Assembly (NCBI GenBank): GCA_035290185.1
Contig: DATDUW010000022.1
Location: forward strand, 1,579 to 65,578
Direction of reading: 5' to 3'
Length of the DNA stretch: 64,000 nt
Source of the DNA: Patescibacteria group bacterium
GTDB taxonomy: Bacteria; Patescibacteriota; Patescibacteriia; UBA9934; GWF2-40-263
The notes beneath the pieces are model-generated. The model was not told the origin of the DNA. It ran no database searches and worked only from the letters and a program-made list of their open reading frames with translations. The first letter of the stretch is position 1. Each line of letters starts with the position of its first letter. Of the stretch, positions 19,676-56,230 are shown in pieces. The position numbers were made by a program, and so were the translations under genes.

Positions 19676-19870
19676 ATGTTCTGGATTGCAGTCGTTGGCT
19701 GGGTTTTTTTTACGATTCCTCTCCTGGCTTTTTTCGTCTTCAGCCTATGGATGATCAGCGAGGCGAGGAAGGATGATGATCAAATTGGCTCATTCATCGG
19801 CCTCCTCTTTTTGATTTGGGTGATTGGAATTGTTCTCCTTGCGGTTTCCTATCTTTCAAAGATGTTGTAA
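19676..19870 (+). CDS. 64-aa two-TM small membrane protein (copy 2)
   Basis: About 85% amino-acid identity to the 1295-1489 product, with long identical DNA stretches (tggatgatcagcgaggcga.gaaggatgatgatcaaattggc; cttgcggtttcctatctttca). Confidence 0.6.
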   Translation: MFWIAVVGWVFFTIPLLAFFVFSLWMISEARKDDDQIGSFIGLLFLIWVIGIVLLAVSYLSKML

Positions 19871-21042: not shown

Positions 21043-21057
21043 CCTTTTTTAACCGAA

Positions 21058-21090
21058 AACAGCCTTTTCAAGCAAAAGGGCTGTTTTTTT
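21058..21090 (+). terminator. Rho-independent terminator
   Basis: CAGCCTTTT-caagc-AAAAGGGCTG hairpin plus TTTTTTT. Confidence 0.65.
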
Positions 21091-21101
21091 GTCCCAGCCT
21101 C

Positions 21102-21130
21102 TTGACATATTTTTGTAGAAATGCTACTCT
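21102..21130 (+). promoter_or_regulatory. Sigma70-like promoter candidate (TTGACA-N17-TACTCT)
   Basis: Perfect -35 hexamer, 17-nt spacer and a weak -10, placed at the 5' edge of the GC-rich island. Confidence 0.4.
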
Positions 21131-21150
21131 GCTCCCTTGTTCCTTAAAAC

Positions 21151-21251
21151 CGCACTGAAGCCGATGCGAGGCGATTACGTCTCTCCCCCTTCCCAAGGGG
21201 GAGATGAAGAGGGGGTTGCCTTCGTCTAGTCCTCTCGCATCGGTTTCAGTG
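21151..21251 (+). ncRNA. GC-rich structured 5' leader / candidate cis-regulatory RNA
   Basis: Outer stem of ~19 bp (CACTGAAGCCGATGCGAGG / CCTCTCGCATCGGTTTCAGTG, one G-U pair, one bulge) encloses a CTCTCCCCC / GGGGGAGA inner hairpin. It lies between the promoter candidate and the RBS of the 21373 gene. Confidence 0.35.
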
Positions 21252-21372
21252 TTAGGATAGATTGAAAAAAAGAGGGGTCGACAGAGAATAGTTTCTGTTG
21301 ACCAAAGGATAGGGCAGGTGGCCAGGGGGGAGTCTCCCTGCCACGAATTCTCAGACAAAGGAGAAAAGATCC

Positions 21373-22965: not shown

Positions 22966-23330
22966 AGCATCCTCTTTTTCAATCGTACAAAGAAGCCTTG
23001 AACCGTCTCAAAGAGGCACTGGGTCGGGAAAAAGATGATCTGATTCGCGATGCGGCCATCCAACGGTTTGAATTTACGGTTGAACTGGCATGGAAATCGA
23101 TGCAGAAGCGTTTGCAGGAAGAACAGATTTTGTGTCGGTCTCCAAAAGAATGTTTACGGGAGGCTTTTGCTTTCGGACTCATTGAGGATGATCCCGGATG
23201 GATTCGGGCTATGGAGGACAGAAATCTTACCTCTCATACGTACGATCAAAAAATAGCAGAAGAAATTTTTGTCCGTTTGTCAGAATATATCAGGCTGTTC
23301 GACGAACTTGAAAAAAAATTGGAGTCATAG
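22962..23330 (+). CDS. HEPN-domain protein (NTase substrate-binding, HI0074-like) toxin partner
   Basis: R-x4-HxY HEPN motif (RNLTSHTY). Overlaps the MNT gene stop (ATGA), the classic MNT-HEPN operon arrangement. Confidence 0.75.
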   Translation: MKHPLFQSYKEALNRLKEALGREKDDLIRDAAIQRFEFTVELAWKSMQKRLQEEQILCRSPKECLREAFAFGLIEDDPGWIRAMEDRNLTSHTYDQKIAEEIFVRLSEYIRLFDELEKKLES

Positions 23331-25045
23331 TGGACGAAAATGAATCTATGTCCCAAGCGCTCTATCGAACCTATCGTCCCCAAACGTTTGCAGACCTGAC
23401 GGGTCAGGAGCATGTGAAACGAACGCTCCAGAACCAGCTCAAAATCGGGCGGGTGGCCCATGCCTATCTTTTTACTGGTCCGCGCGGAGTAGGGAAGACC
23501 ACAGCCGCTCGGCTGCTTGCCAAGGCCGTGAATTGTCAGGGGATTACGGAAGGGAAAGATAGCCTTCCAGAACCCTGTAATGTCTGTTCAAGCTGTCAGG
23601 AAATCACGGGCGGGTCATCGCTGGACGTCTATGAGATCGATGCGGCTTCTAATACCGGCGTGGATCATGTACGCGAGCACATTATTGAGAGTGTCCGTTT
23701 TTCTCCGAATAAGGCGAAGATGAAGGTGTTCATTATCGATGAGGTCCACATGCTTTCGACCTCGGCTTTTAATGCGCTGTTAAAGACGCTTGAGGAACCT
23801 CCGGCTCACGCCCTGTTCATCTTAGCAACAACGGAAATTCACAAGGTCCCAGCCACGATCATCAGTCGTTGTCAGCGGTTTGATTTTCATCGTATTCCCT
23901 TTCAGGAAATGACCGATCGACTCAAGGCGATCTGTGCGGCCGAGGGAGTGACCATTGAGGATGGCGTCTTGCGCGAGCTTGCGCGACAATCCGAGGGGTG
24001 CGAGCGCGATGCGGAGAGTCTGCTCGGCCAACTCATGGCGCTCGGAGAAAAGACCATTGGAGCTGAACAGGCTTCTCTCGTGCTGCCCATTGCCCAAACA
24101 TCCTCTGTGGTGTCACTTCTGGAACTGCTTCCGGAGCACCGAACAGCGGATGCGGTTCGACTTTTAAACGACTATCTCGAGCAGGGAATGGATGTTGGCG
24201 CGTTTTTAGACGCGTCTGCCGAAGCTCTACGAACCGCTCTTTTGCTCAAGCTTGGGGGCATGGATTCTTTTCATCCTCCGTATGATCCAGAAACGGTTTT
24301 GCGACTTAATACCCTTGGACAAAAATGGAGTTCATCGATTTTAAGCCGAGCTATTGAAATGTTTTTGGAGGCCAAGCGGTCTAGTCGTTTGGATTCAATT
24401 CCGCAGGTGTCAGCCGAAATCGCTATTGTTCGGTTGTGCGAGGGAGATGGAGGAAATACGCCGCCGGTGGCAACCCCCCCCAGCCCCCCCTTGGGAAGGG
24501 GGGGAGACGTCGAGAAACCACCTTCAGCCTCCCTTGGGAAGGGGGGAACAACTCGTCCCCCATCCCCCTTTGTAAAGGAGGGGCCGGGCCTGTCCGACAT
24601 AATAGAGCAGAAGGGGGTGGTTGACGTACATCAGGGACATGGAGAAGTCGGGGCTATCTCTCCTTCTTCTGATTCTCCTCCGATCAAAGATGTGGCCCTT
24701 GGTGATATCCCCGTTCTTGATCTTCAAGACGTTATGCGCAAGTGGCCCCAGGTATTTGCCAAGGTGCAGGAATGTAATGCGTCCCTGCCGCTCATTCTCC
24801 AGAGCGGGGAGCTGGGAACCGTCGAAGGGAATACGGTGGAAATTCGTTTTGCTTATTCGTTGCATGCGGAGACGTTGAATCGCGCGAAGAATCGGGATTT
24901 AGTGGAAAAGATTCTTCAAGACGTGCTGGGTGCGTCCGTGCGTGTGCGGGCTGTTCACGATCCTGACGCATCCGAAACTCGAAAAACGTCCGCGGATGGG
25001 GCGGTAGCTGCGATTTTGCAGAATTTCGGGGGGCAGGTGATTTGA
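23330..25045 (+). CDS. dnaX: DNA polymerase III subunit gamma/tau
   Basis: AAA+ clamp-loader motifs (GPRGVGKTT, Zn module C-x-x-C...C-x-x-C, DEVHML, SRC motif IISRCQRF). Start is either GTG 23330 or ATG 23348. Pro/Gly-rich linker before the C-terminal domain. Confidence 0.9.
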   Translation: MDENESMSQALYRTYRPQTFADLTGQEHVKRTLQNQLKIGRVAHAYLFTGPRGVGKTTAARLLAKAVNCQGITEGKDSLPEPCNVCSSCQEITGGSSLDVYEIDAASNTGVDHVREHIIESVRFSPNKAKMKVFIIDEVHMLSTSAFNALLKTLEEPPAHALFILATTEIHKVPATIISRCQRFDFHRIPFQEMTDRLKAICAAEGVTIEDGVLRELARQSEGCERDAESLLGQLMALGEKTIGAEQASLVLPIAQTSSVVSLLELLPEHRTADAVRLLNDYLEQGMDVGAFLDASAEALRTALLLKLGGMDSFHPPYDPETVLRLNTLGQKWSSSILSRAIEMFLEAKRSSRLDSIPQVSAEIAIVRLCEGDGGNTPPVATPPSPPLGRGGDVEKPPSASLGKGGTTRPPSPFVKEGPGLSDIIEQKGVVDVHQGHGEVGAISPSSDSPPIKDVALGDIPVLDLQDVMRKWPQVFAKVQECNASLPLILQSGELGTVEGNTVEIRFAYSLHAETLNRAKNRDLVEKILQDVLGASVRVRAVHDPDASETRKTSADGAVAAILQNFGGQVI

Positions 25046-30973: not shown

Positions 30974-31528
30974 GTGGACATGAAGAGGGTTATTTTGCTG
31001 AGACACGGCGAGAAGGGTCAGGGGAACCAAAAAGAGATGCTCTCCTGGGCTGGGATGAAGCGGGCAAGAGAATCGGGTCAAGACATGATGTTTGGGGGAG
31101 TTGGGGGGTTTGATCTGTATGTGGTAAGTGAAGCCTTCAGAACCATACAGACCCTCGCGGCTTTGGCTGTTGGAGCTGAATGGGTTGTTCAGACGTTAAA
31201 AATCATGGATCTATGGGGGGCAACGCCGTATGAGTGGAAGTGCGCTGTGGAGAAAGCCGGGGGGTCCAAAGAGTTGGCGGATCTTCGCTCTTCGAATCCC
31301 GGATTTTTTTCGGTCACCTCGCTGAGGTTATCCTTGACCTTCTGGGAGATCAGGGGGTTTGTTGAAGAAGAGGGTTCAGTCCTCTTCATCGGGCACTCGC
31401 CTACGACCGAAATGCTTGTTTTGTCACTGACCGGGAAGGAGATCATTCCTCTCGGCGAGTGCGAGGGGGTCGAGCTCGAGGTCGAGGGGAAGGTGGTGCA
31501 GATCGTCCGGGAAATTCGGAATCCCTGA
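30974..31528 (+). CDS. Histidine phosphatase family protein (SixA/PGAM-like)
   Basis: ILLRHGEKG catalytic RHG motif at the N-terminus; 184 aa. Confidence 0.65.
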   Translation: MDMKRVILLRHGEKGQGNQKEMLSWAGMKRARESGQDMMFGGVGGFDLYVVSEAFRTIQTLAALAVGAEWVVQTLKIMDLWGATPYEWKCAVEKAGGSKELADLRSSNPGFFSVTSLRLSLTFWEIRGFVEEEGSVLFIGHSPTTEMLVLSLTGKEIIPLGECEGVELEVEGKVVQIVREIRNP

Positions 31529-31575
31529 ATCCGCCCCCTCCCTGCCAATTCCACATTCATTCGTCTGCTCCCTCC

Positions 31576-31608
31576 GAGGCGGCCTTCACCGCCTCGTTTT
31601 CGTTTTCA
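31576..31608 (+). terminator. Rho-independent terminator
   Basis: GAGGCGG-ccttcac-CCGCCTC followed by GTTTTCGTTTTC. Confidence 0.7.
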
Positions 31609-31646
31609 GAGAAATGTGTCACGATGGCGATGATTTGGACTAGAAT

Positions 31647-31695
31647 AATTGTCATCCTGAGAAGCTTCCCATTTTCTGTGCGACGAAGGATCTCT
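31647..31695. repeat. REP-like intergenic element, copy 1 (core GTCATCCTGAG ... CGACGAAGGATCTCT)
   Basis: 49-nt sequence nearly identical at both ends to 36004-36050. Its 5' half also has an inverted partner at 31756-31778. Confidence 0.6.
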
Positions 31696-31777
31696 TTTTG
31701 TTCTGATTTCAGTTCATTTTCTTACAGAGGTTCTTCGGTCGCTACAAAAAACAAGCTTCCTCAGAATGACAATTTAT

Positions 31778-32281
31778 ATGAAAAAGCCCCAACTTTTTCC
31801 TTACATCCTGATTCCCCTTTTTGTCGTCTTTCTTATCCTTCAAATTCGTTCTTGGATTGTGAAACCCGAAGCTGAAACAGCCGTGCTTCAGAAGGAAACT
31901 ACCTCTGTTATTTTTCCGGACGGTTTTGACGTGAAGGCGGAGGTTGTTCGCACGCCAGAAGCACAGGCACAAGGATTGTCCGGACGTGAAGCGTTGAAGC
32001 CAGAGGAAGGCATGTTGTTTTTTTTGGAAGAGCCCGGGAAGTTGGCTATCTGGATGAAAGGCATGCGGTTTCCCATTGATGCGCTCTGGATACGTCATGG
32101 GACGGTCGTCTATGCCGTTTATAACGCTCCTGTGCCAGAGGTTGGAAAAAAAATCCCGTCGTTTTATCCTTCAGAGGAAGCGGATACCATTTTGGAAGTC
32201 CCAGCAGGAACAGCGGAGGCGCATGGAGTAAGCGTGGGGACGGAGGTGCGAGTAGAGGAGGTTGATGAGAACTCTTTGTAA
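31778..32281 (+). CDS. DUF192 (COG1430) family protein
   Basis: N-terminal TM then MLFF...MKGMRFPIDALWI...G.VV pattern typical of DUF192. ORF begins at 31766; the second Met at 31778 is the likelier start. Confidence 0.6.
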   Translation: MKKPQLFPYILIPLFVVFLILQIRSWIVKPEAETAVLQKETTSVIFPDGFDVKAEVVRTPEAQAQGLSGREALKPEEGMLFFLEEPGKLAIWMKGMRFPIDALWIRHGTVVYAVYNAPVPEVGKKIPSFYPSEEADTILEVPAGTAEAHGVSVGTEVRVEEVDENSL

Positions 32282-32288
32282 TCTCTCT

Positions 32289-32418
32289 CTCGTCATTGCG
32301 AGCGGAGTCCCGCCCCGGTTCTGTGGGAAGACGGGACGAAGCGAAGCAATCTCACGGGAAATGAGTTAACGAGAGATTGCTTCGTCGTACAAAAGAACGC
32401 ACTCCTCGCAATGACGAG
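32289..32418. repeat. Large nested-palindrome intergenic element (REP-like / structured RNA candidate)
   Basis: Outer arms CTCGTCATTGCGAGCGGAGT / ACTCCTCGCAATGACGAG and inner arms CGAAGCAATCTC / GAGATTGCTTCG. Shares the GTCATYSYGAG and GACGAAG motifs with the 31647 and 36004 elements. Confidence 0.55.
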
Positions 32419-32461
32419 TTATTTTCCATTTTTCTTCCCTTTCCTCCTCCCTCTTTTTATG

Positions 32462-33724
32462 TCCAACTTATTTTCCGTTCGTGGAGAAAACGAGCGCCGG
32501 AAGGGGGCGCCGCTGGCGGATCGCATGCGGCCGCGTTCGCTTGCGGAATGTGTGGGGCAGGAGAAACTCCTGGGAGAAGGAGGCGTGCTTCGGCGCGCCC
32601 TTTCGCAGGATCGGATTCCGTCGATGATTTTGTGGGGCCCCCCAGGAACAGGGAAGACGACGCTTGCGCGCATTATTGCCCACGAGACCTCTGCACGATT
32701 TATCGCGTTGTCCGCGGTCACAGCCGGCGTGCCTGAGGTGCGAGTCATTGTTCGGGAAGCGAAAGAACAGTTGGAATTGCACGGAGTCCGTACCATCGTT
32801 TTTGTTGATGAAATTCATCGGTTCAACAAGGCACAACAGGACGTTTTTTTGCCACACGTGGAAGATGGGACGATTGCGCTCATCGGAGCCACGACCGAGA
32901 ATCCGTCGTTTGAGGTGAATGCGGCTCTTTTGTCGCGTTCTCGCGTATTCGTTTTAAACAAGCTGTCTCCGAAAGACCTCTGGGTCGTCTTGCAACGCGC
33001 CCTGGAGGATTCAGAGAGAGGATTCGGTAGCCGATCCGTTGAAGCAGAAGAGGAAGCCCTTTCTCTTCTGTCTACGCTTGCGGATGGCGATGCCCGCGCG
33101 GCCCTTAACGCGCTTGAGATCGCGGTTGATACGGCGCCCGTGGAAAAGAGTGGGACGATTCGCCTTACTACCACACTTGTACGGCAGTCTTTGCAAAAAT
33201 CCCATCTGCTTTATGACCGTGCCGGGGAGGAACATTACAACATTATTTCCGCCCTCCATAAGTCCATGCGGGGCAGCGATGCGGACGCGGCTCTTTACTG
33301 GCTCGGACGCATGCTTGAAGCCGGGGAAGATCCGTTGTATATTGCGCGACGGCTGATCCGATTCGCTTCTGAAGACGTTGGCCTTGCGGATCCTGGCGCT
33401 CTTGTTCAAGCTGTGGCAGCTTTCCAGGCCGCGCATGCGGTGGGAATGCCAGAGTGTTCGGTCAACCTTTCCCAGGCTGTGGCGTATCTTTCCCAGGCAC
33501 CGAAATCTATCGATCTTTATCGTGCTTACGAAAAGGTAAGGGAAACAATCCAAAACCGTCCCGCCTATCCGGTTCCGCTCCATCTGCGCAATGCTCCGAC
33601 CGGACTGATGAAGGAGCTTGGCTATGGAAGGGATTCTGTGTATCCTCCGGAGGAAAAAGGAAAGACCCAGCCGTCCTATTTGCCGGAGGAGTTAGAAGGA
33701 AAAGTCTTTTTTGAAAAGGAATAA
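32462..33724 (+). CDS. rarA: Replication-associated recombination protein A (RarA/MgsA AAA+ ATPase)
   Basis: Walker A GPPGTGKTT, Walker B VFVDEIHRFNK, sensor and MgsA C-terminal helical domain motifs. ORF 32411-33724; the Met at 32462 lies after the palindromic element. Confidence 0.88.
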   Translation, partial: SNLFSVRGENERRKGAPLADRMRPRSLAECVGQEKLLGEGGVLRRALSQDRIPSMILWGPPGTGKTTLARIIAHETSARFIALSAVTAGVPEVRVIVREAKEQLELHGVRTIVFVDEIHRFNKAQQDVFLPHVEDGTIALIGATTENPSFEVNAALLSRSRVFVLNKLSPKDLWVVLQRALEDSERGFGSRSVEAEEEALSLLSTLADGDARAALNALEIAVDTAPVEKSGTIRLTTTLVRQSLQKSHLLYDRAGEEHYNIISALHKSMRGSDADAALYWLGRMLEAGEDPLYIARRLIRFASEDVGLADPGALVQAVAAFQAAHAVGMPECSVNLSQAVAYLSQAPKSIDLYRAYEKVRETIQNRPAYPVPLHLRNAPTGLMKELGYGRDSVYPPEEKGKTQPSYLPEELEGKVFFEKE

Positions 33725-33736
33725 TGTGCCCACCCT

Positions 33737-34189
33737 ATGACGACCGAGGAACTTCTTTCCAACCTTGAGCCAGGGAACACCCTTCTTGCTCGCAACGATC
33801 CATTCGATTACCGCGGTAAGGCCGAGATTACCCTTGATGGCGGCGACCGCGTCTACTGGCTTTTCGGCGATGAGGGGGCTTTTCTTTCTGTGAACCCCCA
33901 GACGGACGAAATCATGATTTTTACGCCAGCGGAAGGGGAAGTGGAGGAGGAGGAAGACATTGTGAGCTATTTTAATGATAGCTATGAGCTTTCCTATGAG
34001 GACCATGGAGAAATGACTTCCGTGGAAGAGATCGTCTCTGGTGAGGAGGGAAATCAATTTCATTTTAGAGATTTTGAAGACGAGGAGGGAAGGGTTATCC
34101 GTTTGCTCGAAAATGAGAGTACGAACGAAGAAAACGCCTATGCCGGTTCCGTGCTTTTGGAGGAAGATTTGACGCTCGTTGAGGAATAA
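33737..34189 (+). CDS. Hypothetical highly acidic protein
   Basis: 150-aa ORF, Glu/Asp-rich C-terminal half; no identifiable domain. Confidence 0.45.
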   Translation: MTTEELLSNLEPGNTLLARNDPFDYRGKAEITLDGGDRVYWLFGDEGAFLSVNPQTDEIMIFTPAEGEVEEEEDIVSYFNDSYELSYEDHGEMTSVEEIVSGEEGNQFHFRDFEDEEGRVIRLLENESTNEENAYAGSVLLEEDLTLVEE

Positions 34190-34206
34190 AAAATACCTGA
34201 TCGGTT

Positions 34207-35979
34207 ATGACGCGGAAAAACCGGTCTTCCGGACAGCGACGTCCGCCGGCAGCTTGGCGGCCACGTGTTCTGTTTGGAACGCTGGTTTTTCTCTCCGTTG
34301 CTATTGCGGCACGACTTTTTGTCCTCCAAATTTTCGATGCGGATTTTTATCAGGCTCTTGCTTCGGATCAACACAGCCTGTTTCAGGAATTTTTTCCGAA
34401 ACGCGGCCGTATTTTTGTCCACGACGGCAAAGAGGGTCGGTTGGTAGCTTTGGCAGCCAACGAACAACGGGCTTTCGTCTATGCCGATCCGAGACTTCTG
34501 TCCGATCCGGCGTCCACCGCAAAACGGATTGGAGAGATTTTGGGTCTTGGTGAGGAAAAAATTGCCGCGCTTTCTGTCAGGTTTTCCCACAAGGAAGATC
34601 CGTATGAGCCCGTGGCCCATCGGGTCACAGAGGAACAATTGCAGAAAATTTTGGAGCCAGGGGAAAAGGGTATCGCTTATGCCTGGGAATCTGTTCGCTT
34701 CTATCCGGAACCAAACACAAGTGGTCATGTCTTGGGTTTTGTGGGGGCGGACGAAGATGGAACGTTAGCAGGGAAATACGGCATCGAAGGAGCGTTTAAC
34801 AAAATTCTGACTGGGACGCCTGGATTTCTCCATTCGGAACGCGATATCGGCGGCCGTCTGATTGCCGTGGGAAATCATGCTTTTGTTCCCGCTGTCGATG
34901 GGGCGGATCTGGTGTTGACGCTGGATCTGCCCATTCAGTATGTCGCCTGCACGAAGCTTCAGGAAGCGGTTTCCAAGCACGAAGCAGACAGCGGTTCTGT
35001 TATTATCGTCGAGCCGAAAACAGGAAGAATCCTCGCTATGTGCAGCGTTCCGGATTTTGATCCGAATCGATACAATGAAGTGGAAAATGCTTCCGTGTTC
35101 AACAATCCAGCAGTTTTTGACGCTTATGAGCCCGGCTCTGTCTTTAAGCCGTTTACGATGGCAGCGGCTTTAGACACGGGGGCTGTGGAGCCAACGACGA
35201 CGTTTGAAGACACGGGATCCGTTATAGTAACGGGATGGCCCGCACCCTTGGCCAACGCAGAAAATAAAAAGTACGGGGTCGTTGACATGACCCAGGTTCT
35301 TGAGGATTCGATTAATACCGGCGTGATTTTTGCCCTTCGGCACACGGGGCTGGAGACGTTCGCCACCTACATCCATTCTTTCGGATTCGGAGAACGGACG
35401 GGTGTGGAGCTCGGAGCCGAATCCTCGGGGGACATTGCCTCCTTGGAGAACGTAAAAACGGAGATTTATCCTGCAACAGCTTCGTTCGGTCAGGGCATCA
35501 CGGTTACACCTCTTCAGATCGTTATGGCCTATGCTGCCATTGCCAATGGTGGCCTGTTGCTCCAGCCTAGGATCGTGGACGAGGTGAGGTATGCGGACGG
35601 TCGCATGGACCGTTCTGCTGTCAAGGAGGTGCGGCAGGTTATTCGCCCAAAGACGGCAAATTTGCTAGGGGCCATGCTTATTTCCGTTGTCGAGAACGGT
35701 CATGGAAAGCAGGCGGCTGTTTCGGGTTACTATATTGGCGGAAAAACCGGGACGGCGCAGGTGGCAAGCAAGGATCGTTCGGGTTATGATGCAGATGCCA
35801 CGATTGGTTCTTTTGCTGGCTTTGGCCCTGTGGACGATCCGCGTTTTGCCATGATTGTGCGTATTGACAACCCAAAGGGCGTGACCTGGGCTGAATCAAC
35901 AGCCGCACCAGTCTTTGGCGAGATTGCGGATTTTTTGGTACGTTATTTAGAAATTCCACCCAAGAGAGACCTCAAATAG
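34207..35979 (+). CDS. Class B penicillin-binding protein (PBP2/FtsI-type transpeptidase)
   Basis: N-terminal TM, PBP dimerisation region, transpeptidase motifs SVFKP (SxxK), SIN and KTGTA. Confidence 0.88.
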   Translation: MTRKNRSSGQRRPPAAWRPRVLFGTLVFLSVAIAARLFVLQIFDADFYQALASDQHSLFQEFFPKRGRIFVHDGKEGRLVALAANEQRAFVYADPRLLSDPASTAKRIGEILGLGEEKIAALSVRFSHKEDPYEPVAHRVTEEQLQKILEPGEKGIAYAWESVRFYPEPNTSGHVLGFVGADEDGTLAGKYGIEGAFNKILTGTPGFLHSERDIGGRLIAVGNHAFVPAVDGADLVLTLDLPIQYVACTKLQEAVSKHEADSGSVIIVEPKTGRILAMCSVPDFDPNRYNEVENASVFNNPAVFDAYEPGSVFKPFTMAAALDTGAVEPTTTFEDTGSVIVTGWPAPLANAENKKYGVVDMTQVLEDSINTGVIFALRHTGLETFATYIHSFGFGERTGVELGAESSGDIASLENVKTEIYPATASFGQGITVTPLQIVMAYAAIANGGLLLQPRIVDEVRYADGRMDRSAVKEVRQVIRPKTANLLGAMLISVVENGHGKQAAVSGYYIGGKTGTAQVASKDRSGYDADATIGSFAGFGPVDDPRFAMIVRIDNPKGVTWAESTAAPVFGEIADFLVRYLEIPPKRDLK

Positions 35980-36003
35980 AACAAACTTGCAAAGTAAAAT
36001 GGT

Positions 36004-36050
36004 ATTGTCATCCTGAGGAGTGCGATTTTCTGTTACGACGAAGGATCTCT
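36004..36050. repeat. REP-like intergenic element, copy 2
   Basis: ATTGTCATCCTGAGGAG...ATTTTCTGTTACGACGAAGGATCTCT; matches copy 1 except for the central ~9 nt. Confidence 0.6.
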
Positions 36051-36105
36051 CATCCTTGTTGAAATGAATTAAATAGCCGACGATTTTATCTCCTCCACAT
36101 TTTTT

Positions 36106-37383
36106 ATGAAACGTCTCATCCAATCTCTCCTTCGCCACAAGGCCAAACGGTTTCTTGCCAAACACAAGCCGCGCGTGGTGGCCGTGACTGGATCGGTGGG
36201 GAAGACGTCGACTCGGATGGCGATTGCTCTCGTCCTTTCCGGACGATTTAAGGTGCGAACTGCCCCGGAGAATTACAATAACGAATTCGGCGTTCCGCTT
36301 GCGATCCTAGGACTCAAAAGCCCGGGTCGTTCCATTTTAGGATGGCTTTCCGTCCTCCTCCATCGGGAAAAGGATCCGCCCAATGTCCTTGTGCTCGAAT
36401 TTGGTGCAGATCGCCCTGGAGATATTGCTGCTTTGTGTGACATTGTTCCGCCCGAAGTCGGTGTGGTCACCGCGCTCTCTCCCGTTCATGCGGAGTATTT
36501 TGAAAACATCGAAAAGCTGGCGGAGGAAAAGGCAATTCTCGTCGAGCGGTTGCCGGAAGATGGTCTGGCTGTTTTGAATGCTGATGACGAACAAGTGTCT
36601 GCTTTCGCTTCAAAAACGCGTGTGTCGGTCATCCGTTATGGTTTCTCTTCCGCAGACGTGCAAGCCGGACCGCCAACGCTTTCCACGCGCGAGGATTTTT
36701 CGTTTGATCCAGGCGAGACATTTTGTTCCCTTACCTTCCCTGTCCGTGGAAAGACCGGGGAAGCTGCTATTTTCCTTCCGAATGTGCTGGGAAGACAGCA
36801 AGCAACAGCAGCTCTTGCGGCTGTCGCGGTTGGGGAACATTTCGGATTGACCGTTGGAGAGATGGCTGAAACACTGAAAAATTATCAGGTCCCGCCCGGA
36901 CGTTTGCGTCCGATTCCCGGCATTAAAGGGACGCTCATTTTGGACGATTCCTATAATGCGGCTCCGGCTTCGGTTGCTGCCGCGCTTAGGGTTCTGCGCG
37001 AGTTTCATCCCGTCGAATCTCGTCGTCGCATCGCTGTCTTGGGCGACATGGCAGAGCTGGGACAGTACCGTGAGCAGGAACATCGTCAAATCGGTCTTCT
37101 GGTTGCAGACGCTGCTGATGTCCTTGCTTGCGTGGGTGAGAAAGCAAAAGGAATTTCCGAAGGGGCCAGGGAAGCCGGAATGGATCCGGACGTTATAAAA
37201 GAGTTTTTGGATGTTGAAGACGCCGGCCGTTGGTTGGATCCGTTTATCAAACAGGGAGACGTCATCCTTGTTAAGGGGTCCCAAAGCTCGCGGATGGAGA
37301 AAATTGTAAAAGAAGTGATGGCCGAACCTTTGCGAGCCTCCGAGCTTTTGGTGAGGCAGTACGGGAAATGGATAAGCCAATAA
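36106..37383 (+). CDS. murF: UDP-N-acetylmuramoyl-tripeptide--D-alanyl-D-alanine ligase
   Basis: Mur ligase P-loop VTGSVGKTST, central and C-terminal Mur domains, and MurF-like ending KGSQSSRMEKIV. Confidence 0.85.
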   Translation: MKRLIQSLLRHKAKRFLAKHKPRVVAVTGSVGKTSTRMAIALVLSGRFKVRTAPENYNNEFGVPLAILGLKSPGRSILGWLSVLLHREKDPPNVLVLEFGADRPGDIAALCDIVPPEVGVVTALSPVHAEYFENIEKLAEEKAILVERLPEDGLAVLNADDEQVSAFASKTRVSVIRYGFSSADVQAGPPTLSTREDFSFDPGETFCSLTFPVRGKTGEAAIFLPNVLGRQQATAALAAVAVGEHFGLTVGEMAETLKNYQVPPGRLRPIPGIKGTLILDDSYNAAPASVAAALRVLREFHPVESRRRIAVLGDMAELGQYREQEHRQIGLLVADAADVLACVGEKAKGISEGAREAGMDPDVIKEFLDVEDAGRWLDPFIKQGDVILVKGSQSSRMEKIVKEVMAEPLRASELLVRQYGKWISQ

Positions 37384-38342: not shown

Positions 38343-40322
38343 TTACCAATTTTGATCGATTTTTTCCGTCTGCCGCAGTACCGTTGATTTGTCGTAATTT
38401 CGGCTACTGTCAACGGAAGGGCCTAGACGGTAGTTGCCAAAGAACGCCTCCGGCAGGTCATCTACTTCGGCTGCCCAGGCAGGGCCATAGAGAGCCGCGG
38501 CGATTTCTTCATTCGCAATGGCGCGCAGGACTCCGCCGCGCGACACGGCATAGACCGTGGGGTCGCTTGGAAATTTCACTAATTTTTTTCCAGGACGATA
38601 GGTGACGTTGGGACCGAGCGGAAGGGAAGCCATGACCTCTTTAGAAACCGAAACGACTTTTTTGAAATCAGCAAACCACGTTTTAAAAATTCGTTCATTG
38701 GGAAAGGCATGGCGTTTTCCATCTGCACCGTAGTAATAGACGGCTTTGCACGGATCATCCGCAGTTGCGCCTGCTCCACACCCGATTTTAACCAGATCTG
38801 CAGGTCGAACGTCGCTGGAAACAGGTAAAATGGTTACAGGAGCATCAAGGCCGTCTACCCTGTTTCCTTCACTGTCCACACAAGAGGCATGAACGGGAAA
38901 TGTCCCGACGTTTGGGAAGGAGAAGGAGGTGCTGGCATATCCATTGGAAACGGTCATGGATTGTTTGCGGACGTCGTCTACATACAAGGTACAGTTAAGG
39001 ACGTCCTGGTCATCCCAAACTTCGGCTGAAAGGGTGATGGATGATCCAATAATCGCAGAAGTCGGGGAAATCAGACCTACGACGGGAAGGGCGGAGCCGG
39101 TAACGGTGAAGGACAGTTTTGTTTCGGATCCAGCATTGCCGCCAGCATCTATGGCACGGACGCCGACCACATGATCGCCGGGTTTGAGAGGTTCGTTCGG
39201 AATGAAAATAAGGCTTGATCCGGCGCTGCGATAAGAACCGTTGTCAAAGCGAACTTGATAAGAAGCAACGGACGTTTCGTCATCCGAGGCCTCGTCCCAC
39301 TGGATTGTTGGGGTCGGGTCATTCGTGACAGTCCCCTTATCGTCCAAACGAACATGGGATGGAGCTGAAGGCGGATGGGCATCATAACGAATAATTGTTC
39401 CTCCCTCGCCGGCCCCAAAACGCGTATCAGAACTTCGAAAGGAGAGGATCTGAAGGATGGAAGATCCCGGCAAGGACGATTGCAGCCATGTGGCACCGCT
39501 GTCTGTTGTCTCAAACAGAGTCCCGTCGCTCCCAGAAACCAGGCCGTTCCCAAAGGAGAGGAAAGCGAGGTCTGTTAAATCGGACGCTTTCCAGTCCAGG
39601 ATTCGGATGGATTTCCATGTTTTTCCGCCATCGGATGTTTTGAGAAGTGTACCGTCTGAAACTCCGGCCCAGCCTTCGCTTTGTGAAATCATTTGCAAGG
39701 ATGGAATATCCTGGGCCGTTCCGGAAGGAAGCATGCTCCACGTTGACCCCCCGTCCGCTGTTTTTAAAAGGATGCCGTTCGCTCCAGCAATCCATGCCGC
39801 GGACGTGTTGGATCCGGGGACGCTTACGTCCAAAAGGTCTGCACTTGTGCCGGATGGTTTTTGTTTCCACGTTTTACCGCCGTCTGTTGTTTTAAGGATG
39901 AGCCCACCTTCCCCGACCACAAAGCCGGTGGAGGAAGTAATCATACGAAGGTCGTAGAGATTTTTTTCCGTTCCCGTTTCGAGTCTCTGCCAGGTTGACC
40001 CCCCGTCGGTTGTTTTGATAAGTATCCCTTTTTGTCCAGCAGCCAGGACGGTTTTTGAATCAAGGAGGGAAACAGCAAAGAAGTCCCCCGAACCCGGTTC
40101 GCCAGAGGGTTTTTTCCAAGTTTTGCCTCCATCTGTTGTTTTGAGAACGGTCCCTTCCGCGCCAACGGCATAACCCGTTGAACTTCCGGAAAAACCGAAG
40201 TCATAGAGTGCTTTATTTGTTGGAGAAGAAACAGAAGCCCACCCGGCAGCTTCGGCAACAAAAGGGACAACGAAACAGAGAAAGAAGAGGACCGCAATAC
40301 TGGGAAGAAAACGTTGAGGCAT
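38343..40322 (-). CDS. Secreted BNR/Ycf48-like repeat protein with C-terminal Ig/FN3-like region
   Basis: Signal peptide, then at least six S/T-x-D-G-G-x-T-W BNR repeats (TTDGGKTWK and variants), then a beta-rich region. Confidence 0.8.
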   Translation of the reverse strand: MPQRFLPSIAVLFFLCFVVPFVAEAAGWASVSSPTNKALYDFGFSGSSTGYAVGAEGTVLKTTDGGKTWKKPSGEPGSGDFFAVSLLDSKTVLAAGQKGILIKTTDGGSTWQRLETGTEKNLYDLRMITSSTGFVVGEGGLILKTTDGGKTWKQKPSGTSADLLDVSVPGSNTSAAWIAGANGILLKTADGGSTWSMLPSGTAQDIPSLQMISQSEGWAGVSDGTLLKTSDGGKTWKSIRILDWKASDLTDLAFLSFGNGLVSGSDGTLFETTDSGATWLQSSLPGSSILQILSFRSSDTRFGAGEGGTIIRYDAHPPSAPSHVRLDDKGTVTNDPTPTIQWDEASDDETSVASYQVRFDNGSYRSAGSSLIFIPNEPLKPGDHVVGVRAIDAGGNAGSETKLSFTVTGSALPVVGLISPTSAIIGSSITLSAEVWDDQDVLNCTLYVDDVRKQSMTVSNGYASTSFSFPNVGTFPVHASCVDSEGNRVDGLDAPVTILPVSSDVRPADLVKIGCGAGATADDPCKAVYYYGADGKRHAFPNERIFKTWFADFKKVVSVSKEVMASLPLGPNVTYRPGKKLVKFPSDPTVYAVSRGGVLRAIANEEIAAALYGPAWAAEVDDLPEAFFGNYRLGPSVDSSRNYDKSTVLRQTEKIDQNW

Positions 40323-50904: not shown

Positions 50905-53016
50905 ATGCCTGCTTACGAAGATCACGATCATGAGAAGGACGTCATCTATTTTGCCGCGACGAATTATCGCAATCAGATGCGGAAATTTGGCATTCGCACG
51001 GATGATCGGCGTCGACACATGTATGTGATCGGGAAGACAGGCATGGGAAAGACGACGCTCCTCGAGAACATGATCTTGGCGGATATTTATAAGGGCCATG
51101 GATGTGCTTACGTTGATCCCCACGGGGACACGGCTGAAAAGATCATTGATTTTATTCCGGAATGGAGACAGAAAGACGTTGTCTATTTCAATCCGTCCGA
51201 TTTTGAATATCCGATGGGTTTTAATATTCTCGAGTCGTATGACCCCAACACCCGGCACGTTATTGCCGCCGGACTCATGGGGGTATTTAAAAAGATCTGG
51301 CCGGATGTGTGGAGCGCTCGCATGGAGTACATCCTCAACAATTCGATTTTGACGCTTTTGGAAAATCCAGGCAATACGCTTTTGGGGATCAATCGTCTGC
51401 TGGTTGATCGAGATTTTCGGGTAAAAATGGTTGGAAAGGTGAAGGATCCAGTGGTGAAATCCTTTTGGATCACGGAGTTTGAACAATGGGAGCCAAAGTT
51501 TCGCACCGAGGCTATTGCCCCGATTCAGAACAAGGTCGGACAGTTTCTTGCAACATCCCTTGTGAGAAACGTTGTTGCCCAGGTCACGTCGACCATTGTG
51601 CCGCGCAAGTTCATGGACGAGAGCAAAATTTTTATTGTCAATCTTTCTAAGGGACGGATCGGAGAAGATGCCATGAAACTTTTGGGTGGAATGCTCATTA
51701 CGAAAATGCAACTTTCCGCCATGGAACGCGTAGACATCCCCGAGAAGGAACGGCGAGACTTCTATCTCTATATCGATGAGTTTCAAAATTTTGCCACAGA
51801 GAGTTTTGCTTCCATTCTTTCTGAGGCTCGCAAATATCGGCTGGCTTTGATCATGGCCCATCAATACATTGAACAGTTGACCGAAGAAGTCCGTGATGCT
51901 GTGTTCGGAAACGTCGGGTCTCTCCTTACTTTTCGTGTTGGTTCTCCGGATGCGCTCTTTTTGGAAAATGAGTTCATGCCCACGTTTACGCATGAGGACT
52001 TGGTCAACCTGGCCAAATATGAAATTTACCTGCGGCTCATGATTAATGGGGTTGCCTCTGAGGCCTTCTCGGCCCTAACGTTGCCTCCGATTGCCCAAAC
52101 AACGCATTCAACGGATTCGGTGATTGCAAGTTCGCGCGACCAATTCGCCAGGCGTCGATCCGACGTGGAAGCGGCGATTCTTCAATGGAGCGAGATGAAC
52201 CCCGAAGAGACGGGAGCAGAGGAAGTGGAAAAGCTTTTCGATGAGGCCGATGCCAAGCGCAAGGCTGCAAAAAAGTTTGGCAACCGGCCCGTGTTCGAAT
52301 ATGACTGTTCGCGCTGTGGCAAACACATGGTTTTGCCCGTAGAGTTGGATAAGAGCCGGCCGATCTACTGCGAAACGTGTATTGAGGCTGTGCGAGAGGA
52401 TCGCCGTCAAGGGAAAAAGCCGGAAGGAGCCGTTGGCTCCGCATCCTCCCCGAGTCCAGTCCCAACCCCCCAGACCGTTGTCAGCCCCGAGACGCCGCCG
52501 TTGGTTCCGCCGCCTCCGCCTCCTCCGACGGCCCCTGCTCCAGCAGTGAAGCCTTTGTCCGCTCCCAAGGCGCCTTCGTTACAAGCTGGGACATTCGTTG
52601 TAAAAAAAACAGAAGGAGAAATCAGTCTTGCCTCCCTTCAGGAAAAGACAAAGACCCTGCCTGAGCCGTTGCCACCGCAACCTATTCCTTTAGAACTTCC
52701 GAAAACCGGAATGGATTTTCTCTCTTCTCAAAAAGCAAAGATTCCCCCTGTTTCTCCTCTGCCTGCTGCTGCGGCTGATCCTCTTTCTTCTTCGCAAAAA
52801 CGGAAACGGCGGCATAAGCATTCCTCCTCCATCTCTTCGGCTTCTCCCCCTCCTCCATCCCCCCCGCTAGGATGGAAAAATGACCCGGCCCCCCGGCGAC
52901 CCGGCCCGGCAAACCCCGTCTCCGGACCCCGTGTTTCCCCGCCCACGCCGGCATCTTCTGCCCCTGTCAAACCCCCTCCATCGCGTCCAGATCCCGGTGA
53001 AATTTTTCCCTGGTAG
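50905..53016 (+). CDS. TraD/VirD4-like (type IV coupling protein family) P-loop ATPase without TM anchor, with C-terminal zinc ribbon and proline-rich tail
   Basis: Walker A GKTGMGKTT, Walker B YLYIDEFQNF, arginine-finger region ARKYRLALIMAHQ. C-x2-C...C-x2-C ribbon, then a ~200-aa Pro-rich low-complexity tail. Confidence 0.75.
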   Translation: MPAYEDHDHEKDVIYFAATNYRNQMRKFGIRTDDRRRHMYVIGKTGMGKTTLLENMILADIYKGHGCAYVDPHGDTAEKIIDFIPEWRQKDVVYFNPSDFEYPMGFNILESYDPNTRHVIAAGLMGVFKKIWPDVWSARMEYILNNSILTLLENPGNTLLGINRLLVDRDFRVKMVGKVKDPVVKSFWITEFEQWEPKFRTEAIAPIQNKVGQFLATSLVRNVVAQVTSTIVPRKFMDESKIFIVNLSKGRIGEDAMKLLGGMLITKMQLSAMERVDIPEKERRDFYLYIDEFQNFATESFASILSEARKYRLALIMAHQYIEQLTEEVRDAVFGNVGSLLTFRVGSPDALFLENEFMPTFTHEDLVNLAKYEIYLRLMINGVASEAFSALTLPPIAQTTHSTDSVIASSRDQFARRRSDVEAAILQWSEMNPEETGAEEVEKLFDEADAKRKAAKKFGNRPVFEYDCSRCGKHMVLPVELDKSRPIYCETCIEAVREDRRQGKKPEGAVGSASSPSPVPTPQTVVSPETPPLVPPPPPPPTAPAPAVKPLSAPKAPSLQAGTFVVKKTEGEISLASLQEKTKTLPEPLPPQPIPLELPKTGMDFLSSQKAKIPPVSPLPAAAADPLSSSQKRKRRHKHSSSISSASPPPPSPPLGWKNDPAPRRPGPANPVSGPRVSPPTPASSAPVKPPPSRPDPGEIFPW

Positions 53017-53022
53017 CCTTTT

Positions 53023-54444
53023 TTGACTCCTATGCCCCCTGAAATTCAGGAAAATCTCGTCGCACGCCGTCACGAACCGCCGGCTGCGCTTCCCACCAAA
53101 GATAATACGCCTGTTGAAGAAATTTCGTTGTTCGGAAGAACGAATTTTAGTTCCGGCTATGTGGTGAAACGTCAAATTTTTGGTCTGAAACGACAGGATC
53201 GCATGCGGCACCTGTACGTGATCGGAAAAAGCGGGGTCGGAAAAACGAAATTGCTTGAGCAACTCATCCGCGCGGACGCGTTTTTTGGTCACGGCGTTTG
53301 CGTGATCGATCCGCACGGCGATCTGGTTCAGAACATCCTTGATTTCATTCCAGAACACCGCCTGGAGGACGTGATGATCATCAATCCGGGGGACCGCGAA
53401 TTTCCCATTGCCTTCAATCCGATTGCCAACGTGACCGAAGACGACCGCTTTCCCGTGACCAACGAGCTCATCGAAATTTTTAAAAAACAGTTCGGGTCTG
53501 ATTGGAATCCGCGCATTGAACATCTGCTAAGGTTTACAACCCTGGCCATGATCGATTTTCCGGGTGGAACCATTAACGGCATGGTGTCCCTCCTTTCCAG
53601 TGGTCGTTTCCGCAGCCGGGTGATCGAACACGTTAAGGATAGTGTCGTGCGCCGTTTTTGGGCCATTGAGTTTCCGGAGTGGTCGCAGCGCTACGATGCC
53701 GAGGCTGTGAGTCCCCTCTTGAATAAGTTGGGCCAGCTTTTGGCTGATCCCCTCATGCGCCGTATTTTTGGACAGCAGCAGAACCGGGTGGATTTCTTTG
53801 ATCTCATGCAGCAGCGCCGGATCGTCCTGGTCAATTTGGCCAAGGGACTTTTGGGGGATGATGTCAGTTCTTTTTTCGGGGCCCTGGTTATTACCAAACT
53901 CAAGCAGTCAGCCATGAAACGCGTGACGCTCCCCCCTCATCTGCGTCTGCCGTTCTACCTCTACGTCGATGAGTTTCAAAATATCGCCACCAAGACGTTT
54001 GAAAACCTGTTGGCCGAGGCACGCAAGTTCGGCATCGCCATTACGGTAGCAAACCAAAATCTTTCACAACTCGACTATTCGTTGAAGGCTTCGTTGTTCG
54101 GGAATGTCGGATCCATCATTACGTTCCAGGTGGGGGCGGATGATGCAAAAATACTTCAGGATGAGCTGGCGCCGATTTTTGAATTTCGGGATATTATCAA
54201 TCTGGGCGAGCGGGAGATTTACGTGAAGATGACGATTGAGGGAAAACGCTATGATCCGTTTTCCGCCGAGGTACTCGCCGTGAATGATTCCAAACACCCG
54301 TCCTATTTTGAACAGATTCTCCATCGGTCTCGAGAACGCTGCGCCATGCCGCGCGCAAGCGTAGAGGCTGCGCTGGCCCAGGAAGAACAGGAATCCAACG
54401 GTTTTCCGTCCGCACCGGTTTCTCAGGACGAGATTATTGTTTGA
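53023..54444 (+). CDS. Second TraD/VirD4-like P-loop ATPase (paralog of 50905 gene, no ribbon or tail)
   Basis: Walker A GKSGVGKTK, Walker B YLYVDEFQNI, ARKFGIAITVANQ; collinear with the core of the upstream ATPase. Confidence 0.75.
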   Translation: MTPMPPEIQENLVARRHEPPAALPTKDNTPVEEISLFGRTNFSSGYVVKRQIFGLKRQDRMRHLYVIGKSGVGKTKLLEQLIRADAFFGHGVCVIDPHGDLVQNILDFIPEHRLEDVMIINPGDREFPIAFNPIANVTEDDRFPVTNELIEIFKKQFGSDWNPRIEHLLRFTTLAMIDFPGGTINGMVSLLSSGRFRSRVIEHVKDSVVRRFWAIEFPEWSQRYDAEAVSPLLNKLGQLLADPLMRRIFGQQQNRVDFFDLMQQRRIVLVNLAKGLLGDDVSSFFGALVITKLKQSAMKRVTLPPHLRLPFYLYVDEFQNIATKTFENLLAEARKFGIAITVANQNLSQLDYSLKASLFGNVGSIITFQVGADDAKILQDELAPIFEFRDIINLGEREIYVKMTIEGKRYDPFSAEVLAVNDSKHPSYFEQILHRSRERCAMPRASVEAALAQEEQESNGFPSAPVSQDEIIV

Positions 54445-54482
54445 TTTGATGAAAAGAAAAAATAGAATTGTGATTGTGGCCT

Positions 54483-56222: not shown

Positions 56223-56230
56223 AAAACCAA

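Follow-up and report, generated by a model that had tools for sequence, protein, structure and literature searches.

Hairpin units in intergenic gaps of a Patescibacteria contig are probably insertions of a REP-like DNA repeat of the CGTC/TGTC-tagged class

Five hairpin units in the DUF192 to murF region

The 64-kb stretch of Patescibacteria DNA analysed here (the window) contains a hairpin unit in five copies spanning 4.4 kb, arranged as two inverted dimers with their tags outward (elements A and B) and one monomer (C). All three elements lie in intergenic gaps between co-directional genes: A ahead of DUF192, B between DUF192 and rarA, and C between PBP/ftsI and murF (Table 1). The unit consensus is YGTC-P1(5 bp, starting with AT)-GAG...CGA(A)-P1'-CTC, and the units are 43-45 nt long except for B-left (63 nt). 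The sequence of P1 is free provided that pairing holds, the interior stem/loop (P2) is variable, C(TC) directly follows the stem on its 3' side, and unpaired purines are conserved on the 5' side (GA-G-GA) and on the 3' side (GA-C-GAA). In the window copies the interior comprises 20-39 nt with a U/T-rich loop and little P2 pairing; the 39-nt interior of B-left holds a hairpin of its own (GTCCCGCC..GGGAC).

All five units begin with TGTCAT or CGTCAT, in agreement with an HGTC tag followed by W-Y, the tag being CGTC in element B and TGTC in A and C, and in each of them a C stands right after the palindrome (..AT-C or ..AC-C, then TC). The core GTCATYSYGAG was matched exactly five times in the window, all within 31651-36017, compared to 0.24 matches expected from shuffled sequences (none of 100 shuffles reached five). 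Near-matches of the core at 27381, 33956 and 59705 were attributed to chance, the rest of the unit being absent there.

Table 1. Repeat elements and hairpin units located in the window
Feature	Position	Strand	Description
Element A	31647..31774	.	Tag-outward inverted dimer of two units separated by a 32-nt spacer; follows the terminator of the upstream ORF and precedes the DUF192 start
Unit A-left	31650..31694	+	T-GTC-ATCCT-GAG...CGACGA-AGGAT-CTC; TGTC tag; P1 = ATCCT/AGGAT
Unit A-right	31727..31771	-	T-GTC-ATTCT-GAG...CGACCGA-AGAAC-CTC; P1 pairing 4/5, slightly decayed; outer end gives ATG 31766
Element B	32289..32418	.	Tag-outward inverted dimer, DUF192-rarA gap
Unit B-left	32291..32353	+	C-GTC-ATTGC-GAG-(39-nt interior)-GAA-GCAAT-CTC; CGTC tag
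Unit B-right	32373..32416	-	C-GTC-ATTGC-GAGGAGTGCGTTCTTTTGTACGACGAA-GCAAT-CTC; aligns with unit C; outer end gives ATG 32411
Unit C	36006..36049	+	Monomer, downstream of the PBP/ftsI stop (35979) and upstream of the murF start (36106); T-GTC-ATCCT-GAGGAGTGCGATTTTCTGTTACGACGA-AGGAT-CTC
Weak candidate for the remnant of a right arm of C, decayed	36077..36095	-	..CTCCTC complements GAGGAG

The initial annotation had described a repeat of ~48 nt at 31647-31695 and 36004-36050. These segments do have common ends, ATTGTCATCCTGAG (14/14) and CGACGAAGGATCTCT (15/15), as well as a common inner ATTTTCTGT, and they diverge between the matching blocks; the suggestion that the ends pair as a stem around a variable interior was borne out. 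The inverted partner reported at the DUF192 start is real: in reverse complement, 31756-31774 matches 31647-31666 except for one indel and one mismatch. Rather than a solitary long-range partner, this segment forms the outer end of a second, inverted unit, which makes the first copy the left half of a nested palindrome of 128 nt. The palindrome upstream of rarA, thought to contain related motifs, belongs to the same family (P1 = ATTGC/GCAAT), and the alignment of its right arm to copy C is base for base.

Abundance and stem covariation in public sequences

Further copies, on which the initial annotation had made its case depend, were found in public sequences far outside the window, and the unit was abundant in viral and metagenome contigs. 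The two P1 boxes were perfectly complementary in 164 of 172 matches from 120 viral contigs, with five box types present out of the 64 combinations permitted by the search pattern. When the 5-nt boxes were left unconstrained, all five P1 positions paired in 188 of 243 unique public units, representing 10 types, compared to 69 units after permutation. The box pairs included ATCCT/AGGAT, ATTGC/GCAAT and others, ATTGC being the commonest variant, and P1 began with AT in 180 of the 188 fully paired units, or 8 of the 10 types (exceptions ACTGC, ACTCT and GTTGC). Compensatory substitutions were abundant, as the initial annotation had required, among 27 aligned units of 38 nt: P1 was 99% paired with changes on both sides at 3 of 5 pairs, both-side changes occurred at 5 of 6 pairs in P2, and the covariation score of the alignment was matched by none of 500 shuffles. 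Stems contained 13 G.T compared to 5 A.C combinations, position -1 was T in 78% and C in 16% of 392 unique public units, and pairs of units in public loci were tag-outward in 55 cases and tag-inward in 18. A literature search on repeat sequence strings gave no relevant match.

The units bear no more than a superficial likeness to small self-cleaving ribozymes of the hammerhead kind (GUC, CUGA..GA, GAA): they contain a GUC triplet, CGAA precedes the 3' strand of the stem, and the ATCCT and ATTCT variants also carry CUGAGGA. That the units are such ribozymes is scarcely credible, as the unit is a single bulged hairpin and not a three-way junction, the commonest P1 variant lacks CUGA, and no Rfam ribozyme was matched at E <= 10. 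On the first two of these points, hammerhead and K-turn readings of the GA-rich core were both rejected.

Occupied and empty sites and orientation of the units

No units were found at the syntenic RarA-ORF-PBP loci of three relatives (L231-L233), so that neither position nor orientation upstream of the orthologs is conserved there. The PBP-murF gap is 8 nt in L232 compared to 126 nt with unit C in the window. The RarA of the window had no exact match in public assemblies, its best homolog being 67% identical. On a viral contig (L003), a unit-bearing insertion of ~48 nt occupies an intergenic junction that is empty in L040 and L115; a second candidate for an empty site (L040, 4709-4740) was set aside, the alignment being too messy.

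Single units located between co-directional genes had the same direction as the genes in 36 cases and the opposite direction in 38 (crude gene calls). Within contigs, single units were co-oriented, 105 of 113 lying on the majority strand compared to 79.8 expected, a value that none of 5000 simulations reached. This within-contig orientation was unlinked to gene direction, and single units were in excess on the strand of negative GC skew. Together with the excess of G.T over A.C in the stems, the co-orientation would fit strand specificity at the level of DNA.

Folding and position relative to genes

The predicted folding energies of element A were -49.4 kcal/mol (z = -6.5) for the plus strand and -51.9 kcal/mol (z = -6.9) for the minus strand; those of element B were -63.3 kcal/mol (z = -5.5) and -65.3 kcal/mol (z = -7.2). 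Copy C alone was no more stable than its shuffled counterparts (z = 0.2 and 1.2), and at z = 0.2 the pairing of GAGGAG with CUCCUC of the possible remnant in the MFE fold is therefore not significant. The distances of 60-110 nt to the start codons noted earlier for DUF192 and murF hold, but the ATGs at 31766 (DUF192) and 32411 (rarA) sit within element termini and are probably spurious, the likelier starts being 31778 and 32459. An intrinsic terminator is present at 31575-31596, upstream of dimer A, which therefore probably lies within the DUF192 5' UTR. Since the right arm of A, which includes ATG 31766, stops 4 nt short of ATG 31778, a DUF192 transcript starting upstream of A would carry a hairpin of -49 kcal/mol over its initiation region. 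If transcribed, dimer A would bury the DUF192 start region, plausibly as a side effect and not as an evolved function.

This arrangement, with the strong terminator upstream and the compensatory changes in the stems, would agree with RNA stem-loops that act in cis within the mRNA leaders of DUF192, murF and also rarA, and that control translation by masking the initiation region. Against such leaders stand the orthologous junctions without elements in the three syntenic relatives, the presence of identical units in hundreds of unrelated contexts, phage-like contigs included, and the random orientation with respect to flanking genes. In addition, the dimers are strand-symmetric, C alone is not a stable fold, no relevant family was returned by Rfam at gathering thresholds on the whole window or at E <= 10 on 31000-36500, and a nuclease homologous to the one described below does not bind RNA (Chenal et al. 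2025, Nat Commun 16:2388, PMC11893778). Gene-specific regulation through mRNA leaders is thus unsupported and must be regarded as improbable.

Whatever their origin, the copies might be retained for acting as transcript-end structures between genes (terminators, attenuators or mRNA stabilisers), a role proposed for many REPs. The location of all three elements between co-directional genes fits this proposal, as do dimer B, which starts 8 nt past the DUF192 stop and is followed by T-rich sequence, and the mostly ORF-downstream location noted for REPs (Di Nocera et al. 2013, BMC Genomics 14:522, PMC3733652). A terminator scan flagged none of the three elements, the relatives lack them and no orientation preference was seen, all of which render a role of this kind distinctly unlikely.

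A GIY-YIG nuclease gene accompanies the units

No recurrent transposase family was found beside units in 149 loci, where the neighbours were mostly phage structural genes. The recurrent neighbour was a gene for a 94-aa single-domain GIY-YIG protein consisting of one PF01541 domain, with the layout unit(+)-GIY-YIG-unit(-) in L136 and L123. When the closest relatives of one such protein, chosen for being unit-flanked, were collected (80 genome loci from many phyla, including Patescibacteria), the unit density was 3.43/kb at <=200 nt from the gene compared to 0.184/kb elsewhere, approximately 19-fold higher, an association that by this choice holds for that clade only. A unit was present near the gene in 56 of the 80 loci and units were present on both sides in 23 (150-nt cut-off), the commonest arrangement being '+' upstream and '-' downstream. 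Cassettes of identical layout were seen in Patescibacteria (L153, L161, L166, L175 and L224).

The 94-aa protein shares 49% identity (pairwise E = 1e-30) with a 94-aa ORF of N. gonorrhoeae, the SsnA ortholog, which is flanked by NTS repeats and has Y6, Y17 and E64, the residues mutated in SsnA (PMC11893778). The Neisseria homolog SsnA acts on single-stranded DNA, and the key positions for its cleavage and binding are a GTC 5' of the palindrome and a C just after it (PMC11893778); both are present in all five window units. No GIY-YIG gene was found within the 64-kb window, so that a partner nuclease in this organism is only putative and the copies could be relics.

Comparison with known repeat systems

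NTS and the Ssn-related motifs (SRM) are repeats associated with the SsnA/Ssn GIY-YIG ssDNA nucleases (PMC11893778). Like them, the units are directional and have a 5' HGTC tag, a palindrome starting with AT and a C right after the palindrome, and a hairpin-forming inverted repeat falls within 20-50 nt in the units of 43-45 nt. Copies are intergenic and clustered around genes, and tag-outward units flank a ~94-aa single-domain GIY-YIG gene, a property of the unit family outside the window; tag-outward dimers adjoin the nuclease gene as they do upstream of N. gonorrhoeae ssnA. In contrast to the continuous 8-9-bp stem of NTS/SRM, the stem of the window units consists of the 5-bp P1 and a variable P2 split by conserved GA-rich unpaired bases, with an interior of 20-39 nt and a CTC tail. 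The published SRM pattern, HGTCWYN(0-2)YYVSBRHN(0-5)WNVSBRGN(0-2)RNCYNB, had no match in the window or near the 80 GIY-YIG genes; it matches canonical NTS and misses both the short and the long GAG..CGAAG forms.

The CGTC-tagged REP superfamily comprises families CGTC-1 to -4, including dRS3 and Rickettsia RPE-4/-6, with 8-9-bp stems, 4-5-nt loops and a CCA-like tail (PMC3733652). The window units resemble its members in the terminal tag (CGTC, TGTC or CCTC in the class; here CGTC, often TGTC instead), in A and T at the first two stem positions, in a short unpaired tail and in having no associated transposase. Inverted dimers with 20-100-nt spacers prevail in that class, and two of the three window elements are dimers. 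The short P1, the GA-rich internal loop, the long interior, the CTC tail and the occurrence in a Patescibacteria-like genome set the window units apart from CGTC-1 to -4. As the elements fit neither the SRM pattern nor the stem and loop dimensions of the CGTC families, they are taken to be a variant.

The architecture is also that of REPINs, in which short hairpins sharing a conserved tag at the 5' end occur mostly as inverted dimers that fold into one long hairpin, and an enzyme gene is flanked by inverted units; recognition of single-stranded DNA may be a further resemblance. Were these classical REP/REPIN repeats mobilised by a RAYT, a Y1 tyrosine transposase of the IS200/IS605 type, strand-coherent orientation would be expected, as replication-coupled ssDNA transposition (IS608/ISDra2) is known to produce it. 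In IS200/IS605 elements, subterminal hairpins are recognised on one ssDNA strand, insertion has a replication-related strand bias, and non-autonomous miniature forms exist; unlike these, the window elements are without TnpA or TnpB. Mobilisation by a RAYT is very doubtful, given that the tag is YGTC and not the GTAG of REPs, that the recurrent neighbour encodes a GIY-YIG protein and not an HUH/Y1 transposase, that the 149 loci lacked a recurrent transposase family, and that the CGTC repeats surveyed by Di Nocera et al. were likewise without one (PMC3733652).

Discussion

The three elements are, in our assessment, likely to be insertions of a REP-like DNA hairpin repeat of the CGTC/TGTC-tagged class that includes the Neisseria NTS/dRS3 and the Ssn-related motifs. 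They were grouped with NTS/Ssn-related motifs and CGTC-tagged REPs because of the enrichment of units beside the GIY-YIG gene and the identity of its product to the NTS-flanked SsnA ortholog. Their character as insertions is supported by the unit-free loci of the three syntenic relatives and by the viral junction that is occupied in L003 and empty in L040 and L115. Points against this assignment are the 64-kb window without a GIY-YIG gene, the unmatched SRM pattern and the stem/loop sizes unlike those of the four CGTC families, the U/T-rich interiors with little P2 pairing, the P1 mismatch of A-right, and the derivation of the nuclease association from one protein clade.

In the mechanism that we propose by homology, the strand carrying 5'-YGTCAT... 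would become single-stranded during replication, DNA uptake or conjugative transfer and the hairpin would fold, upon which a ~94-aa single-domain Ssn-family GIY-YIG nuclease may bind the hairpin and nick a few nucleotides 5' of the tag. A nuclease gene between two tag-outward units would constitute an IS-like cassette, and the dimers, which have the cassette architecture with a short spacer in place of the gene, look like miniature derivatives. Any effect on the expression of DUF192, rarA or murF would be a by-product. More tentatively, and with considerable doubt, the unit-ssn-unit cassette (~400 bp) could be a minimal autonomous mobile element that moves via single-stranded DNA, with tag-outward dimers such as A and B as its miniature non-autonomous derivatives. 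To our knowledge, catalysis of strand transfer is not known for GIY-YIG enzymes. If the cassette is mobile in this manner, the strong co-orientation of single units within contigs, a property not reported in the Ssn paper (PMC11893778), and their excess on the negative-GC-skew strand would stem from insertion coupled to replication, or from selection against self-cleavage in the template of the lagging strand. A GIY-YIG enzyme would then be the driver of a family of REP-like repeats found in many phyla, Patescibacteria among them, and in phages.

For annotation, these findings mean that the elements are to be treated as dispersed DNA repeats and not as dedicated riboregulators, and that the ..ATGAC at their termini probably gives rise to spurious upstream starts for DUF192 and rarA. 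A strong dependence on DNA uptake is generally assumed for Patescibacteria. The hairpin GTCAT-N3-GAG...CGAAG-N3-ATCTC is very common in many phyla and in phage contigs, and as an Ssn-associated repeat it escapes the published SRM pattern. The Ssn system therefore probably extends further than has been recognised, also in Patescibacteria, which are unmentioned in the text of PMC11893778. Conserved unpaired purines combined with freely covarying stems would form a clear candidate recognition code for the cognate nucleases, enzymes that are attractive as tools for ssDNA.

Hairpin repeat units in the window

The repeat pair reported in the initial annotation at 31647-31695 and 36004-36050 was found in the sequence as described, with two identical blocks, ATTGTCATCCTGAG and CGACGAAGGATCTCT, exact in both copies. 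The 11-nt core GTCATYSYGAG occurred five times in the 64-kb window compared to 0.24 expected, and all five copies were confined to 31651-36017. The proposed long-range partner at the DUF192 start was also present; it was, however, not an isolated partner but belonged to a second unit in inverted orientation, whose outer end it forms. The first copy is therefore the left arm of element A, a nested palindrome of 128 nt (31647-31774). Element B had the same design. Both elements folded far more stably than shuffled sequence on both strands (z -5.5 to -7.2); the single unit, C, had no stable fold alone. Alignment of the arms gave one unit type: YGTC, 5-nt box, GAG, variable interior, CGA(A), complementary box, CTC. 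The boxes varied among the window copies with complementarity kept; in these copies the inner stem (P2) was mostly a T-rich loop, and the outer stem of paired boxes (P1) carried a mismatch in A-right.

Repeat units, genes and other features of the window
Feature	Position	Strand	Details
Terminator-like hairpin (intrinsic), strong	31575-31606 (hairpin 31575-31596)	+	CGAGGCGG-CCTTCA-CCGCCTCG then TTTTCGTTTT
A-left	31650-31694	+	boxes ATCCT/AGGAT
A-right	31727-31771	-	boxes ATTCT/AGAAC, 4/5 paired
DUF192	31778-32281		
Element B, both arms	32289-32418	+ and -	boxes ATTGC/GCAAT
RarA	ORF 32411-33724		
ORF of 150 aa			between RarA and PBP/FtsI-type transpeptidase
PBP/FtsI-type transpeptidase	34207-35979		
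Unit C	36006-36049	+	boxes ATCCT/AGGAT
MurF-like ligase	36106-37383		
Second hairpin family, one copy	21153-21251		within 100-nt nested palindrome, intergenic gap 21043-21372
Second hairpin family, two copies	24474-24510 (-), 24516-24545		in frame, C-terminal part of DnaX ORF
DnaX (pol III gamma/tau)	ORF 23330-25045		holds second-family repeats
Coupling-protein homologs, TrwB/VirD4-type	50905-54444		two, adjacent; T4SS DNA-transfer ATPases
Five tandem paralogous ORFs	54474-64000		~580 aa, without Pfam match (repeat families D1-D5, D8, D9)
183-nt duplication	1295-1477 and 19676-19858		84% identical
BNR/Asp-box (YCF48-like) repeat protein, 659 aa	ORF 38343-40322		six ~126-nt periodic repeats, 39483-40157 (-)

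The gene names given previously agreed with the genes found here. The terminator-like hairpin closes the upstream ORF (30974-31528) directly before element A. In-frame upstream ATGs at 31766 and 32411 are contributed by the ..ATGAC ends of the two elements, A and B respectively, so that the mechanical DUF192 and RarA ORFs begin within the repeats. RarA homologs of 417-428 aa, compared to 437 aa for the ORF, covered 95-96% of it, and ATG 32459 is therefore probably the true start; the closest RarA proteins were 67% identical and came from Patescibacteria including Candidatus Uhrbacteria. For DUF192, ATG 31778 (MKKPQLF...) is a likelier start than ATG 31766.

A second hairpin-repeat family, also CGTC-tagged, was present in the window (ACGTC-TCTCCCCCTT-CCC-AAGGGGGAGA). 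Similar elements were found upstream of rarA in a syntenic relative (L233) and adjoining units in public loci L139, L146 and L129-L131. The periodic repeats at 39483-40157 were rejected as a DNA element, being protein-domain repeats. GC content rose from about 0.41-0.44 at 4-20 kb to about 0.48-0.54 past 20 kb.

Occurrence and covariation of the unit in public sequence

A degenerate unit pattern matched more than 120 IMG/VR contigs, a lower bound. This pattern permitted 64 box combinations, and among the matches listed, 164 of 172 were perfectly box-complementary, with five box types. When the 5-nt boxes were fully unconstrained, 5/5 pairing was found in 188 of 243 unique units (ten types), compared to 69 after permutation. 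In 27 units of 38 nt, P1 was 99.3% paired with both-side changes at three of five pairs, P2 had both-side changes at five of six pairs, and the covariation score was 0.446 compared to 0.174 in shuffles (reached by 0/500). Conserved unpaired purines separated P1 from P2. The minimal form of 27-28 nt was GTCATTGCGAGCGAAGCGAAGCAATCTC; position -1 was T in 78% and C in 16%, and the tail was TC. A subfamily like the window units (GAGGAGTGCG..ACGACGAAG) occurred in 29 metagenome contigs, where dimers with the YGTC tags outward were frequent. No Rfam family matched the unit. These findings show the hairpin anatomy and covariation of the units, which form a structured family of wide occurrence.

Association with a GIY-YIG nuclease gene

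In two metagenome loci (L136 and L123), an ORF of 94-96 aa consisting of a single GIY-YIG domain (PF01541) lay exactly between a plus and a minus unit, tags outward. When one genome per species was scanned, at least 569 relatives of this protein were found. The best 80 (60-69% identity) were spread over Chloroflexota, Cyanobacteria, Desulfobacterota, Ignavibacteria, Clostridia, Elusimicrobia and Patescibacteria; Saccharibacteria, Berkelbacteria and Doudnabacteria were among the Patescibacteria. Among these 80, strict-unit density was 3.43/kb within 200 nt of the GIY-YIG genes compared to 0.184/kb further off, and 56 loci had a unit within 200 nt; at a 150-nt cut-off, units were found on at least one side in 52 and on both sides in 23. 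The Patescibacteria cassettes had the layout GTCATTGCGAG..GCAATCT, 5-10 nt, ATG..stop, ..AGATTGC..CTCGCAATGAC. No GIY-YIG gene was found within the 64-kb window.

The Neisseria NTS (CGTCATTCCCGCGMAVGCGGGAATCYRG), a subset of dRS3, has been described along with 'Ssn-related motifs' (SRMs); both flank ssnA, whose product is a GIY-YIG nuclease of 94 aa with a single domain (Chenal et al. 2025, PMC11893778). SsnA binds the hairpin on one ssDNA strand only and cleaves a few nt upstream of it, acts on neither dsDNA nor RNA, and restricts transformation by DNA that carries NTS copies; the GTC 5' of the palindrome is important for cutting and the C 3' of it for binding, and Y6, Y17 and E64 are the residues mutated in SsnA (PMC11893778). 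A chromosome of N. gonorrhoeae that PLSDB lists among its plasmids contained a 94-aa ORF with Y6, Y17 and E64, flanked by NTS copies including an upstream tag-outward dimer. Since this ORF and the L136 protein were 49% identical, sequence comparison indicates that the partner protein of window-type units is an Ssn homolog, with whose gene the unit family is associated. Chromosome-sized 2.17-Mb N. gonorrhoeae sequences are labelled plasmids in PLSDB (NZ_CP119140.1; also NZ_CP119142.1), and the SsnA ortholog in the former (positions 1516-1800 of the locus) is without an annotated feature in the PLSDB table.

'CGTC-tagged REPs', including dRS3 as family CGTC-1, were defined earlier; their tag is often TGTC, stems begin with AT, the tail is short, dimers predominate, and no transposase was found (Di Nocera et al. 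2013, PMC3733652). The published SRM search pattern had no match in the window or adjoining the 80 GIY-YIG genes, and the four CGTC families have stems of 8-9 bp and loops of 4-5 nt, sizes which the window elements do not share. The elements are therefore filed as a variant of known CGTC-tagged/Ssn-type repeats and not as members of a described family.

Insertion and strand bias

The RarA/149-aa ORF/PBP order was kept in three relatives and PBP-MurF in one, and the 15-kb loci of the three syntenic relatives contained no units. The PBP-MurF gap was 8 nt in one relative (L232), compared to 126 nt with unit C in the window. In a viral locus (L003, 4336-4392), an insertion of ~48 nt comprised one unit plus 19 nt 5' of it, in the intergenic space separating the end of one gene from the start codon of the next; the junction was uninterrupted in two related viral loci (L040 and L115; flanks 83-85% identical). 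Between co-directional genes, as crudely called, 36 single units ran with the gene direction and 38 against. The elements are absent from orthologous sites in relatives, and these comparisons indicate that they are insertions and not conserved leaders. Occlusion of DUF192 initiation by element A, as previously suggested, is physically reasonable, the right arm ending 4 nt before ATG 31778; as an evolved function it found no comparative support.

Strand bias was measured in public loci L001-L229, a non-random sample with crude gene calls. In loci with at least three single units, the majority strand held 105 of 113, compared to 79.8 expected (0/5000 simulations reached 105). This strand coincided with the majority coding strand in 21 cases and was opposite to it in 17, showing no relation between the two. 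Single units favoured the strand of negative local GC skew in 130 of 183 loci (p about 1e-8). GC skew was positive over almost the entire window, where the units were in the minority orientation (local skew +0.10 for A-left, +0.14 for C). The text of the Ssn paper does not refer to leading or lagging strands or to GC skew (PMC11893778). Within the limits of a non-random sample and crude gene calls, co-orientation and skew bias fit a replication-linked, strand-specific ssDNA process.

By analogy with Neisseria, the 5'-YGTCAT strand would fold once single-stranded, and a cognate Ssn would bind and nick it in this form. A dimer would present the 5'-YGTCAT target on both strands, and unit C on the plus strand only. 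The DNA-transfer genes of the window could be relevant to such an ssDNA-targeting repeat system.

The window holds a real but ordinary feature, a known type of dispersed hairpin repeat. The wider interest is modest: a very common unit variant is missed by the published SRM motif, and with this variant the known range of the Ssn system comes to include Patescibacteria and phage-like contigs.
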